This document shows, piece after piece, positions 59,948 through 64,000 of a stretch of DNA of 64,000 nucleotides. Each line of letters opens with the position of its first letter. Positions within the stretch are counted from its first letter, which is position 1. This stretch comes from an uncultured archaeon. Lineage in GTDB: Archaea; Thermoproteota; Nitrososphaeria; Nitrososphaerales; Gagatemarchaeaceae. The stretch lies in the NCBI GenBank assembly GCA_963817525.1, contig CAWFOU010000007.1:832001-896000 (forward strand), in the 5' to 3' direction. Made by a program: the position numbers and the translations under genes. The notes beneath the pieces are model-generated. The model was given only the letters and a program-made list of their open reading frames with translations. It was not told where the DNA came from and did not search any database.

Positions 59948-61120
59948 ATGGCTTTGCAGTCTCCCGAGCAGTTCTCCCGCGAATATTTTGATTGGTCTGA
60001 GGAGGAGTTCGCGCAAAGGTTCGTAGCGAAGATCTCCGCGGGGCGGCTCAAGCAGAACGAGTCATACATCGACCTGAAGTTGGAGAAAAAGTCCTCCACG
60101 CAGAAGGTGAAGGCGGCCTACAAGGACGCGGTCAACCTCCCGAGCCTCGTGAAGCTGCTCCCCGGGCTCGCCTCCAACCCGACCCCTGCCGATTACGTCA
60201 AATCCGTCAACGGCTTCTTCAAGGACAACAAGGGCGGCGACCTTTTCCATTGGTGGAGGAAGATGAGGGCAGGGACCAAGACCCCGCTCTTCGGCTCGGC
60301 CGACATCATCAACGTCTGCAACCTAAAGTGCGTCCACTGCTACTGGTGGACCAACAGGCAGCCGACGGCAGGTGAGCTGACCCCCGAGCAGTGGAGGGTC
60401 GTCATCCGAAACTCCTTCAAGAAGATGAGGATAGCGAACGTCACGGTCGTCGGCGGCGAGCCGATGCTGAGGAAGGACGTCGTCCAGGTCTTCTCGGAGG
60501 AGATGAGGAACAGGATGAGCGTGGTCACGAACGGCACTCACCCGATGATACACATCAACGGGCTCTACTTCGTGTCCGTCGACGGGACGGAGGAGACCCA
60601 CAACCGCATCCGCGGCCCGAACACATACGCAAAGATGAAGACGAACATCAAGAACTTCGTCGAGACGGGAGGCCACGTCGACGCCAACATGACCTTGAAC
60701 ACACTGAACTACAAGACCGTGATAGACGTCCTTCGCGAGTGGGACGACATCGTGGGTAGGATAAGCATCCAGTTCCACACGCCCTTCATCGACAACGACC
60801 CGCTGTGGCTCCCCTTCGGAGAGGAGAGGGACAAGACCATCGACAGCATCATGGAGTACAGCAGCAAGGAGAACAGGCACTTCGTGGTGAACTCGAAGGA
60901 GCAGTTCGACCTCATGCGCGGCAACTGGGGGTCCATGTGCCCCAACTGGATGATTCTGCCACTGGACTATCGGGGCAACATCAAGACGCCGTGTTGCATG
61001 GGGAGCGCAAACGAAGCCGCGCTGCAGCCGCACTGCGACCAGTGCGGGCTCGCGCCCTACTCGGGCATCCTCGCAGGGCTCTTCCCGACAGAGCAAGCGC
61101 AAGTCCTGCGGAATAGTTGA
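59948..61120 (+). CDS. Radical SAM protein
   Basis: CNLKCVHC, GGEP, TNG, SVDG..H..IRG, C-terminal Cys cluster. Confidence 0.88.
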   Translation: MALQSPEQFSREYFDWSEEEFAQRFVAKISAGRLKQNESYIDLKLEKKSSTQKVKAAYKDAVNLPSLVKLLPGLASNPTPADYVKSVNGFFKDNKGGDLFHWWRKMRAGTKTPLFGSADIINVCNLKCVHCYWWTNRQPTAGELTPEQWRVVIRNSFKKMRIANVTVVGGEPMLRKDVVQVFSEEMRNRMSVVTNGTHPMIHINGLYFVSVDGTEETHNRIRGPNTYAKMKTNIKNFVETGGHVDANMTLNTLNYKTVIDVLREWDDIVGRISIQFHTPFIDNDPLWLPFGEERDKTIDSIMEYSSKENRHFVVNSKEQFDLMRGNWGSMCPNWMILPLDYRGNIKTPCCMGSANEAALQPHCDQCGLAPYSGILAGLFPTEQAQVLRNS

Positions 61121-61193
61121 GCGGCTGCAATCGCCGTAATTCCCAATGCCAAACAACCACCCTTAAATATAAGTGAGGGTCAGAAGGGGTTTA

Positions 61194-61277
61194 ATGCAAC
61201 GCATCAGCACGGTCGGTTCGAGTCCAGCATGCTTTTCGCTCGACAATATCACGGTTGCGTTGTTAGTTTTAGTCTAG
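61194..61277 (+). promoter_or_regulatory. Ile/Leu/Val-rich leader peptide (uORF) of the ilvB-ilvN-leuA operon
   Basis: ATG about 24 nt after a TTAAATAT box; MQRISTVGSSPACFSLDNITVALLVLV*. Confidence 0.7.
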
Positions 61278-61344
61278 AGCCTCGCTCCGGGGTTTCGCGC
61301 ATGCGAGGCATTGGTTACGGTTTCAATATTGGTGAATCCATAGA

Positions 61345-63069
61345 ATGACAGAAAAGATGTCGGGCGCACGTGCCACAGTGGAGGCTCTCGAGCGGGAGAA
61401 GGTAGAGTACATCTTCGGGATGCCGGGCGGCGCGAACCTCCCGCTCTACGACGCCCTATGGGATTCCAAGATCAAGCACGTCCTCGTCCGGCACGAGCAG
61501 CTGGCGGCCCACATGGCGGACGCCTATGGCAGGGTCTCGAGAAAGGCGGGGGTGTGCTCCGCCACTTCCGGGCCTGGCGCGACCAACCTGATAACGGGGA
61601 TAGCCACCGCCTACGCCGATTCCTCCCCGGTGGTGGCGATTACGGGCCAGGTACCGAAGGCGATGACGGGCAGGAACGCCTTCCAGGAGACCGACATCAT
61701 CGGCATCGCCACGCCCGTGACAAAGTACACGCTGCAGCCGCTCTCTGCGCAGGAGGTCCCGTTCGCGGTCAAGGAGGCGTTCTACCTCGCGACCACGGGC
61801 AGGCCTGGCCCCGTGCTCCTGGACCTCCCCAAGGACGTGCAGCAGGAGGAGGCGGAGATGACCTTCCCGGACAGCGTCACCGTGAGGGCTTACAGGCCGA
61901 GTGCGCCCGTCGACGCCCAGGACGTCGAGCGCGCGGCCGCCATGATACTAAAGGCCGAGAGGCCGATATTCTGGGGAGGCGGAGGGGTGAGGATCGCAGA
62001 CGCCGCGCAGCCGTTCGCGGCCCTCGCGGAGCTGCTGATGGCGCCGGTCATCACGACGCTCCAGGGGAAGGGAGACTTCCCGGAGGACCATCCTCTCTCG
62101 CTCGGCCCCATCGGGATGCACGGCCGAGCCGAGGCCAACAAGCTGGTCTCCGAGTGCGACCTGCTCGTCGCGGTCGGCGTCAGGTTCTCGGACAGGTCCA
62201 CGGGGAACTTCGGGGAGTTCGCCCCGGGCGCGAAGATAATCCACATCGACGCGGACCCCACCGAGTTCAACAAGAACAGGGCCGTCGACCTCTCGATACT
62301 GGGAGACGCCAACGTGGTCCTCGGGATGCTCTTCGACGCGGTCGCGAAGAAGATAGCAAAGAGCAAGGACCCGACCAACAACCCGTGGCTCAAGCGGGTC
62401 AACGCGGTCCGAGAGGAGATGAAGGGCATCCCCGCCTACAAGGACTCGTACGCGGACCTTTCGGGCCCGAAGATCGTCAAGAGGCTCCGCGACATCCTCC
62501 CGCCGGAGGCGATACTCACCACGGGGGTCGGAAGGCACCAGATGTGGTGCGAGATCCACTACAAGGTCCTCAGGCCGAGGACTTGGATAACCTCGACCGG
62601 GCTGGGGACGATGGGCTTCGGCCTTCCCGCGGCCGTGGGGGCCAGGTTCGCCAACCCGAACGTGCCGGTGGTGGACTTCGACGGCGACGGCAGCTTCGTC
62701 ATGACCGAGCAGGCCCTGGCGACAGCGGTCGAGGAGAGGCTCCCGATAATCTCGGTGATCCTCAACGACAGGAGCCTCGGGATGGTCGAGCAGTGGCAGA
62801 GGCTCATGTACAACAGGCGCTACATCGGCATCAAGTTCCCCAACACGCCCGACTTTGTGAAGCTCGCGGAGGCATACGGCGCACACGGAAAGACCGTGGG
62901 CTCGCTCGACGAGTTCGCAAAGGCGATGCGCGAGGGGCTGACAATCGAAGGGCCGACGGTCATCGAGGTGCCCGTCTCGCCTGAGGAGGACGTCTTCCCG
63001 TTCCTGCCCCCGGGCAAGGGGATCAAGGACACGGTCTACGGCTCCTCGAAGGAGATGGCCGTCTTTTGA
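61345..63069 (+). CDS. ilvB: Acetolactate synthase large subunit
   Basis: FGMPGGA, RHEQ, TSGPGATN, GTMGFGLP, GDGS TPP motif. Confidence 0.96.
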   Translation: MTEKMSGARATVEALEREKVEYIFGMPGGANLPLYDALWDSKIKHVLVRHEQLAAHMADAYGRVSRKAGVCSATSGPGATNLITGIATAYADSSPVVAITGQVPKAMTGRNAFQETDIIGIATPVTKYTLQPLSAQEVPFAVKEAFYLATTGRPGPVLLDLPKDVQQEEAEMTFPDSVTVRAYRPSAPVDAQDVERAAAMILKAERPIFWGGGGVRIADAAQPFAALAELLMAPVITTLQGKGDFPEDHPLSLGPIGMHGRAEANKLVSECDLLVAVGVRFSDRSTGNFGEFAPGAKIIHIDADPTEFNKNRAVDLSILGDANVVLGMLFDAVAKKIAKSKDPTNNPWLKRVNAVREEMKGIPAYKDSYADLSGPKIVKRLRDILPPEAILTTGVGRHQMWCEIHYKVLRPRTWITSTGLGTMGFGLPAAVGARFANPNVPVVDFDGDGSFVMTEQALATAVEERLPIISVILNDRSLGMVEQWQRLMYNRRYIGIKFPNTPDFVKLAEAYGAHGKTVGSLDEFAKAMREGLTIEGPTVIEVPVSPEEDVFPFLPPGKGIKDTVYGSSKEMAVF

Positions 63070-63551
63070 CCAGGACGTCGAAGGTCCTCTCGACCCTCGT
63101 GGAGAACAAGCCCGGGACGCTCTTCAGGGTCATCCACCTGGTGAGGCTCATGCGCCTCAACATCGAGGGGCTCACCCTCGGAGTGACCAACGGCGGCGCA
63201 GACTGCAGGATGACGATGACGCTGAGCGGGGACGACGCCGCCGTGGAGCACGTGGCGAAGCAGCTCATGAAGGTCATAGACATCCTCGAGGCTCACACCT
63301 ACGGGCCGGAGGAGGTCACTGCGAGGGAGCTGGCCCTGGTGAAGATCAACACGGACAAGATCTCCGTGGCCGAGATACAGAGGAACACGGCCTGCCGGAT
63401 AGTCGACTCCTCCAAGCACTCCGTCGTGGCCGAGATAGTCGGCTCGGCGAAGCAGATCGACGAGTTCGTGGAGAGGCTCGGAGAGTCCAACGTCCTCGAC
63501 ATCGCCAGGACCGGTGTCGCGGCGCTCCCGAAGGAGACGACGTCGCGATGA
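63066..63551 (+). CDS. ilvN: Acetolactate synthase regulatory (ACT) subunit
   Basis: LVENKPGTL, RELALVKI, DIARTG. Confidence 0.9.
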   Translation: MTRTSKVLSTLVENKPGTLFRVIHLVRLMRLNIEGLTLGVTNGGADCRMTMTLSGDDAAVEHVAKQLMKVIDILEAHTYGPEEVTARELALVKINTDKISVAEIQRNTACRIVDSSKHSVVAEIVGSAKQIDEFVERLGESNVLDIARTGVAALPKETTSR

Positions 63552-64000
63552 CCGAGAGGATAATCCGCGTCCTCGACACCACGCTCCGGGACGGGGAGCA
63601 GACGCCCGGGGTATCGCTCACTCCTGACGAGAAGCTGGAGATAGCGGTGGCGCTGGACAGGCTAGGGGTCGATGTCATCGAGGCGGGCTTCCCGATCACC
63701 TCCAAGGGCGAGCAGGAAGGGGTCAGAAGGATCGCGAGGGCGGGCCTCAAAGCCGAGATATCGGGGCTCGCGAGGGCGGACAAGGTCGACATCGACACGG
63801 CGGTCAACTGCGGCGTGAAGGGAGTCCACGTCTTCCTAGGCTCGTCGGACATCCACCTCCAGCACAAGCTCCACATGACGAGGGAGCAGATGGTGAAGCA
63901 GTCGGCCGACATGGTGAGGTACGCGAAGAGCTTCGGGGTCAAAGTCGAGTTCTCGGCCGAGGACGCGACGCGGACCGAGATCCCGTTCTTCAAGGAGGTC
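63548..64000 (+). CDS. leuA: LeuA-family synthase (2-isopropylmalate or citramalate synthase), truncated by the window end
   Basis: DTTLRDGEQTPG, IEAGFP, FSAEDATR; ATGA overlap with ilvN. Confidence 0.85.
   Translation, partial: MTERIIRVLDTTLRDGEQTPGVSLTPDEKLEIAVALDRLGVDVIEAGFPITSKGEQEGVRRIARAGLKAEISGLARADKVDIDTAVNCGVKGVHVFLGSSDIHLQHKLHMTREQMVKQSADMVRYAKSFGVKVEFSAEDATRTEIPFFKEV

Follow-up and report, generated by a model that had tools for sequence, protein, structure and literature searches.

A leader peptide ending in isoleucine, leucine, and valine codons precedes the ilvB-leu operon across an archaeal order and is probably a ribosome-read amino acid sensor

We analyzed a 64,000-nucleotide (nt) stretch of DNA from an uncultured archaeon of the Gagatemarchaeaceae, order Nitrososphaerales (GenBank assembly GCA_963817525.1, contig CAWFOU010000007.1, positions 832,001 to 896,000), hereafter the window. 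Our subject is the leader of the operon that begins with ilvB, the gene for the large subunit of acetolactate synthase. In this leader, a short upstream open reading frame (uORF) ends in a run of isoleucine, leucine, and valine (ILV) codons and is followed at its stop codon by a hairpin. We conclude that the uORF is probably a ribosome-read ILV sensor that controls the operon, and we put the probability of this reading at roughly 0.75. An earlier note, made from the sequence of the window alone, had proposed that the uORF gauges branched-chain amino acids (BCAAs). Comparative evidence supports that proposal: the uORF, its ILV tail, its spacing from the TATA box, and the hairpin abutting its stop are kept across the order.

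Between the upstream radical-SAM gene, which ends at 61120, and ilvB lie, in order, a TATA box, the uORF, a hairpin that we call P2, and a Shine-Dalgarno (SD) sequence (Table 1). The ATG of the uORF (61194 to 61196) is 31 nt downstream of the first T of the TATA box, its TAG occupies 61275 to 61277, and the ORF listing has it inside a GTG-started frame at 61173 to 61277. The features that the earlier note had reported here were all found in the sequence at their coordinates, namely, the TATA box, the 27-codon uORF ending in ITVALLVLV, and the hairpin followed by a T-rich stretch and GGTGA. P2 consists of 7 bp closing a 17-nt loop, and 21 AT-rich bases separate it from GGTGA. Isoleucine, leucine, or valine is specified by 7 of the 9 final codons of the uORF. 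The note's remark that the tail codons are uncommon was borne out in 876 long ORFs, where TTA makes up 0.8% and TTG 5.8% of Leu codons and GTT makes up 8.9% of Val codons. One tRNA-Leu(UAA) gene is present in the genome. The note's gene order of ilvB-ilvN-leuA proved correct as far as it went; the operon is longer than this, with Pfam domains and the ORF map placing leuC, leuD, and leuB past the end of the window, for six tightly packed genes (ilvB-ilvN-leuA-leuC-leuD-leuB).

A tail this rich in ILV is rare in the genome, which is 2.82 Mb in size with 61% GC. At least seven I, L, or V residues among the last ten were found in 4 of 9453 ATG-initiated ORFs of 15 to 40 codons in the whole genome, and among the 52 such short ORFs with a TATA-like motif at -36 to -18, the ilvB uORF alone has a tail of this kind. 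A covariance model of the leader matched this genome exactly once, at the ilvB leader, and matched 15 of 22 same-genus genomes once each. When the 52 short ORFs with a TATA-like motif were screened, no further cognate-codon leader was convincing. One weak candidate (C1:13364-13453 of G000, plus strand) is a TATA-preceded short ORF ending in …RRLLVLLLKE, with Leu or Val at 6 of 10 positions and no long ORF within 269 nt downstream. No uORF was found upstream of ilvC, ilvD, or ilvE. The genes ilvD (43464, minus strand) and ilvC (43629, plus strand) are divergent and start ∼35 to 37 nt past their own TATA-like boxes; the long leader is thus a feature specific to the ilvB-leu operon.

To compare the leader among relatives, we fetched 64 ilvB loci (L numbers denote ilvB loci and f numbers denote families in this analysis). 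The close set comprised 26 Nitrososphaerota-type loci having upstream sequence, and the other-family set comprised 17 genomes, representing 16 further families within the order and anchored on the IlvB protein. The closest loci are from Nitrososphaerota/Thaumarchaeota metagenome-assembled genomes (MAGs), including “Candidatus Gagatemarchaeum stordalenia” (80% IlvB identity). Conservation of ILV-rich uORFs before ilvB, which the earlier note had named as a check on its proposal, was found in both sets. An ATG-initiated uORF with at least five I, L, or V among its last ten residues is present in 23 of the 26 close loci (e.g., MQSGNATTPEVLAKVALIVLL, MAGSNAATTVILQLRALLLLA, MDGSAAEIEFVPVPVIASLLLLILA, and MSRTTSIAQNIILIVLGLLVVLV); the exceptions are L011, with a TTG-started version, L005, with a weaker tail (3/10), and L023, with a broken frame. 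Of the 17 other-family loci, 15 have a short frame that ends in an ILV tail and is followed at the stop by a hairpin, so that 14 of the 16 families have a clear example. In family f2, whose genomes are ∼1.4 to 1.8 Mb and in several cases complete, four of five further genomes carry a uORF with an ILV tail, and the f2 uORFs have 17 to 19 codons. Judging from genome size and abundance, we would guess that the f2 members are ammonia oxidizers. Overall, the peptides range from 14 to ∼37 residues, with N-terminal parts unalike and tails alike. Their stops vary among TAG, TAA, and TGA, and their length changes are whole codons. The design is kept despite nucleotide sequences that are unalike between families.

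Two further sets of loci merit description. In L023 (contig CAWAOY010000022.1), the uORF frame is broken (MQRISTAFRVRHVSRSTTRRLHS) even though its DNA can be aligned to that of the clade, and ilvB matches less well than its 70% identity would suggest; assembly indels may be involved. Three Thermoproteales-type MAGs (L029, L030, and L056) share a 14-codon uORF ∼108 to 159 nt upstream of ilvB that has no ILV tail. It reads MSLLCPVQVTEGRI in L029 and L030 and MSLLCPIKKSRRVR in L056, lies inside a conserved stretch (GATCGGGATGAGTCTTCTCTG), and may be a different leader element.

The ILV tail of the uORF is beyond chance. An ORF of at least 12 codons with at least six ILV residues in its last ten, together with a hairpin of −8 kcal/mol or lower starting within 8 nt of the stop, was found on the forward strand of 31 of the 43 loci and in 0 of 43 reverse complements; 20 rounds of dinucleotide shuffling gave a mean of 0.35 of 43 loci and a maximum of 2. 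Across 42 loci, the ILV content of the tail is 0.66 when read in frame; the two alternative frames over those 30 bases give 0.17 and 0.25, and the ten codons preceding the tail give 0.245. Counted back from the stop, I, L, or V occupies position −2 in 41 of these loci, −3 in 40, and −4 and −5 in 34 each. Leu (0.36), Val (0.21), and Ile (0.08) dominate the tail, and Phe is outside its eight commonest residues despite a T content of 39% of bases.

These tails could in principle belong to a small hydrophobic peptide with its own function that is coexpressed with ilvB, an explanation that we consider very improbable. It would account for a C terminus that is both conserved and hydrophobic. However, the hydrophobic run extends over 7 to 10 residues only, and a run of this length is too short for a membrane span. 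In addition, F, M, and W are scarce in the tail, which consists almost wholly of L, V, I, and A; the N-terminal parts are unconserved, and the element occurs before ilvB only, once per genome.

The position of the uORF relative to its promoter is similarly kept. A strict W-rich TATA 8-mer was detected at 21 of 43 loci, in 15 of which it lies 30 to 31 nt before the uORF start. The archaeal TATA box is centered near −26/−27, and the TATA-to-ATG spacing at these loci, judged from sequence, fits a leaderless transcript. A genome-wide histogram of TATA-to-start distances had no peak, with too few strict motifs in this 61% GC genome. Among RNA data, one run holds part of the stretch (share, 0.13), in the form of contigs. 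A metatranscriptome contig from a relative, identical at 203 of 213 bases (∼95%), spans 61215 to 61427 and includes the uORF end, the leader, and the start of ilvB. It differs from the window at four sites inside the uORF, all synonymous or stop keeping (AAT>AAC, ACG>ACA, TTA>CTA, and TAG>TAA).

Table 1. Features of the ilvB leader and operon within the window
Feature	Position	Strand	Basis
TATA box of the leader promoter, TTAAATATAA	61163-61172	+	Sequence; equivalent position in close relatives
uORF1, putative leader peptide, 27 sense codons plus TAG, MQRISTVGSSPACFSLDNITVALLVLV	61194-61277	+	Sequence, ORF list, conservation
Putative sensor codons ATC ACG GTT GCG TTG TTA GTT TTA GTC (I T V A L L V L V)	61248-61274	+	Codon rarity, frame-specific ILV
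P1 5′ arm, GCAACGCA (partner, 61256-61263)	61196-61203	+	Minimum free energy (MFE) folds
P1 3′ arm, TGCGTTGT, within Val-Ala-Leu codons	61256-61263	+	MFE folds, covariation
P2 5′ arm, GCCTCGC, 2 nt past the stop, holds CCUC (anti-SD core)	61279-61285	+	Sequence, folds
P2 3′ arm, GCGAGGC, SD-like (GAGG)	61303-61309	+	Sequence; polarity across 42 loci
uORF2, candidate relay ORF (hypothetical), 15 codons, MRGIGYGFNIGESIE	61301-61348	+	Sequence, clade geometry
SD sequence of ilvB, GGTGA, 9 nt 5′ of the ATG	61331-61335	+	Complementary to the 16S rRNA 3′ end
ilvB, acetolactate synthase large subunit, 574 amino acids	61345-63069	+	Three TPP_enzyme domains (Pfam)
ilvN, acetolactate synthase small subunit	63066-63551	+	ALS_ss_C and ACT domains (Pfam)
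leuA, continues beyond the window end	63548-64000	+	Pfam, ORF map

Two separate helices, P1 and P2, are predicted in the leader RNA. In P1, the first codons of the uORF pair with the start of the ILV run, and MFE folds also give an alternative register (61194-61200 with 61254-61260) that includes the AUG. P1 covaries modestly, with 84% of cells paired in helix 1 and 3 of 9 pairs changing on both sides. Enclosed by P1 within the uORF is an inner hairpin, TCGAG/CTCGA (61218-61222 with 61239-61243), which falls in an ∼18-nt stretch that is present in the 27-codon clade and absent in the 21-codon clade. P2 is the robust element of the two. Measured from the end of the stop codon, its start falls between −3 and +4 nt in all 25 close loci evaluated (mean z, −2.0), and each of 42 loci has a hairpin at the uORF stop, although the sequences that form it differ considerably. 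Taken together, P1 and P2 have 85% of cells paired, compared to 30 to 47% with the partners slid, and two-sided changes are seen in 7 of their 17 pairs. Alignment of 24 leaders with MAFFT and RNAalifold returned 0 pairs with the hairpin arms misaligned, and a covariance model was used instead. This model (R1, representing one clade) is too narrow to detect the element in other families; it had no match in 150 other genomes of the class sample and 0 of 18 outside the genus. These blanks are no evidence of absence, because IlvB-anchored inspection found the design in the same families.

The arms of P2 also have a fixed polarity. G outnumbers C in the 3′ arm of 40 of 42 loci, and the 5′ arm is C rich in 39 of 42; an SD-like 4-mer is present in the 3′ arm of 34 of 42 loci and in the 5′ arm of 3. 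The complementary anti-SD-like word occurs in the 5′ arm in 23 of 42 loci. Among close relatives, the GCGAGG arm is almost invariant. The 16S rRNA of this genome ends in GGATCACCTCCTTAG, and therefore both GGTGA and GAGG are able to pair with it.

Covariation of P1 and P2 and the near invariance of the GCGAGG arm would also be expected of a structured RNA leader bound by a protein or small molecule, with the reading frame incidental. We regard this alternative as quite unlikely. It is at odds with the frame specificity of the ILV bias, with the constant distance of the start codon from the TATA box, and with the retention of a stop codon as TAG, TAA, or TGA while lengths change by whole codons. 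Helix sequences are, moreover, wholly different between families, in contrast to the constant ILV tail, and a search of 60900 to 61600 against Rfam leader families gave no relevant match at E values up to 10, only chance-level hits.

No terminator of the bacterial type was seen in the leader. Within 60900 to 61600, 0 terminator-like sites were found (0.5 expected), as the earlier note had concluded in seeing no classical U-tailed terminator. P2 is followed by ATTGGTTACGGTTTCAATATT, in which the longest T run is 3, and inspection of relatives by eye showed no T run of 5 or more between P2 and ilvB. With no U-tract, a bacterial-type intrinsic terminator is therefore unlikely. Runs of four or more T's are weakly enriched after genes in this genome (9.8% versus 5.1%). 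A sigma-70 promoter scan of the leader found nothing, and such a scan is inapplicable to archaea. The note's caution that the mechanism may differ from that of bacteria was well placed, given the lack of both a U-tract and an Rfam leader match.

Based on this anatomy, we propose that the leader peptide reports the supply of charged Leu, Val, and Ile tRNAs to the six-gene operon. Transcription would start ∼30 nt past the TATA box, either at the uORF AUG or adjacent to it, and a ribosome would load at the 5′ end of the nascent RNA. When BCAAs are plentiful, the ribosome would pass the rare codons, terminate at UAG, and depart, allowing P2 to fold. When charged tRNA is scarce, it would wait on the last ILV codons. 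The leading edge of a ribosome lies ∼12 to 13 nt beyond the first base of the A site, in bacterial toeprints and archaeal footprints, and because of this a ribosome on the last two or three codons should open P2. With the A site on either of the last two codons, the predicted geometry has the leading edge covering 3 to 7 of the 7 bases of the P2 5′ arm, so that P2 would stay open. This sensing half of the model is well supported: the sequence predicts a leaderless uORF whose tail is placed such that a ribosome on its last two or three codons, or on the stop, would open P2.

The open state of P2 would be the ON state, in which the SD-like 3′ arm (GAGG) and the adjoining start codon are freed. 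Entering ribosomes could thereby gain access to ilvB, in some families directly and, in the clade of the window, perhaps via a 15-codon relay ORF (uORF2) with a stop codon overlapping the ilvB AUG. By analogy with the poly-cysteine small ORFs (sORFs) of mycobacteria, the SD-like 3′ arm suggests translational control. We give such an SD-masking output, as opposed to factor-dependent termination or an effect on mRNA stability, clearly less than even odds, and either of these others fits the data about equally well. uORF2 begins with an ATG at the junction of the P2 loop and 3′ arm, 8 nt downstream of GGGG, and ends with a TGA that overlaps the ilvB ATG (ATGA). An ORF with this geometry, from −44 to +4, is present in the window and five clade relatives (6 of 7 evaluated). 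More generally, an ORF ending at the ilvB start was found in 28 of 40 loci, compared to 17.7 ± 3.0 in 200 shuffles (maximum, 24). We counted a start as served where an SD-like arm lies 3 to 11 nt before an in-frame ilvB start or before a short frame ending −6 to +12 nt from the ilvB start. By this measure, 6 of 40 loci have an in-frame ilvB start served by the P2 3′ arm, and in 16 of 40 the arm serves a short frame ending at ilvB.

Other small frames were noted in the same interval. In L095 to L098 (f2), a conserved motif, TTAAAATTATGGRGA, ∼20 to 30 nt upstream of ilvB opens a 7-codon frame that ends 0 to 1 nt before the ilvB ATG in three genomes and continues in frame into ilvB in L098. L099 has ATGGCGAGA at the same place, likewise in frame with ilvB. 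The 7-codon frame may be a relay ORF or an alternative start. The 5′ part of a 39-amino-acid ORF at 61229 to 61348 was taken as incidental, and by eye the frame is not kept in L005 and L015.

Several observations weigh against the model, most of them against its output. No start is served by the P2 3′ arm in 18 of 40 loci, among them the window, where the SD sequence of ilvB is 21 nt beyond P2. The translational reading is further weakened by the confounding of GTG and TTG starts with the GGTGA motif itself. In equilibrium folding with a ribosome mask, the accessibility of the ilvB SD sequence and AUG did not consistently rise (means of 0.43 to 0.45 over 19 loci), and that of the relay start was unchanged (0.32 versus 0.33 to 0.35 over 7 clade loci). 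In P2 itself, four f2 genomes have weak hairpins (−4.8 to −9.0 kcal/mol) in which the G-rich 3′ arm is missing by eye. Folding energies of the uORF part (mean z, −0.64) and of the whole leader (z, +0.88) are no better than those of shuffles. On the sensor side, a ribosome would reach P2 only from the last two or three codons, and position −1 is I, L, or V in only 25 of 42 loci. A clear ILV tail is missing in families f3 and f4 and in loci L005, L023, and L100, and the loci are related, so that counts of them overstate independence. Finally, the RNA evidence amounts to a single contig at a depth of 4.65 from a library possibly containing DNA. Folding with ribosome masks likewise gave no consistent structural switch, and in only some close relatives could the end of the uORF be seen by eye to pair alternatively with the loop of P2.

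The same sensor could instead have a transcriptional output, with a termination factor acting on the RNA at P2 and the stop codon after the ribosome leaves and a waiting ribosome blocking this site to give read-through. A candidate factor is the archaeal CPSF73-like protein FttA/aCPSF1, by analogy with Rho at the tna leader of Escherichia coli, where the Rho entry site abuts the tnaC stop. The abutment of P2 on the stop in all 25 close loci evaluated and the C-rich 5′ arm are consistent with this alternative, as are the lack of support for SD unmasking from folding and the location of the ilvB SD sequence outside P2 in the window. Against it, neither a U-tract nor a terminator-like site was detected, relatives have no long T run by eye, and T runs are so weakly enriched after genes that they do not define a local terminator signal. 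We consider a transcriptional output rather unlikely, though it shares the sensing half of the proposed ILV sensor.

The leader resembles the enterobacterial BCAA attenuators, which include ivbL before ilvBN, ilvL before ilvGMEDA, and leuL, in that a short uORF with a run of Ile, Leu, and Val codons, some of them rare, precedes acetolactate synthase or leucine genes and is followed by a hairpin. Unlike in these, no GC hairpin with a U-tract and no clear antiterminator/terminator alternative were found; of the marks of trpL- and ivbL-type leaders, the cognate-codon uORF is present, and the defining intrinsic terminator and the Rfam match are absent. It differs further in its archaeal TATA promoter, predicted leaderless start, and stop-abutting hairpin with an SD-like 3′ arm. 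The ermC/cat-type translational attenuators and the TnaC/Rho leader respond, by way of the nascent peptide, to a drug or to free tryptophan and not to tRNA charging at cognate codons. They share with the mechanism proposed for the ilvB leader the principle that access to a neighboring RNA element depends on where the ribosome stands at the end of the leader ORF.

In layout, the leader is closest to the leaderless sORF attenuators of actinobacteria. The accessible text of Canestrari et al. (10.1101/834739) describes leaderless poly-Cys sORFs in mycobacteria at which stalled ribosomes block structures that mask the following gene's ribosome-binding site. As described there, control by these sORFs, a tested bacterial system, is translational; they share with the ilvB uORF cognate codons near the end, the lack of a terminator, and a position as first cistron that is leaderless in mycobacteria and predicted to be so before ilvB. 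The archaeal leader differs from what that text reports in its domain of life and its amino acid, in the location of the ilvB SD sequence outside the hairpin in the window, and in that folding predicts no unmasking. A second comparison is the ilvBNC operon of Corynebacterium glutamicum, for which the accessible part of the source (PMC11857589) describes an ILV-rich leader peptide before ilvB that is translated without a ribosome-binding site. The attenuator described there is a three-hairpin transcription attenuator in a bacterium, whereas no terminator was seen at the archaeal ilvB. Full-text literature searches, with subscription journals outside their coverage, found no paper describing such a leader in archaea.

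One neighboring feature of the operon was also recorded. An ORF with a DDE transposase domain (DDE_Tnp_IS240) lies directly past leuB, between the operon and ilvE (L066:4769-5785, minus strand; G000 C7:900268-901284).

More broadly, leader peptides may be an old and general means of amino acid sensing in Nitrososphaerota, including members with small genomes, that works without a terminator, with the opening of P2 unmasking an SD sequence and licensing ilvB directly or via a relay; we consider this full account conceivable but somewhat unlikely. In bacteria, attenuation by a leader peptide is a textbook mechanism, and it requires that ribosomes follow RNA polymerase. If the full account given here is right, the element would be the first cis-acting amino acid attenuator described in Archaea and would represent a distinct variant mechanism. 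The absence of a terminator together with the fixed SD-like polarity of P2 means that the leader could therefore show a regulatory use of leaderless translation in archaea. The element also marks small, unannotated genes that gene callers have missed. It is conserved across an archaeal order, and some of the genomes that carry it are small and complete and may belong to cultured lineages, in which case the question would be directly testable.

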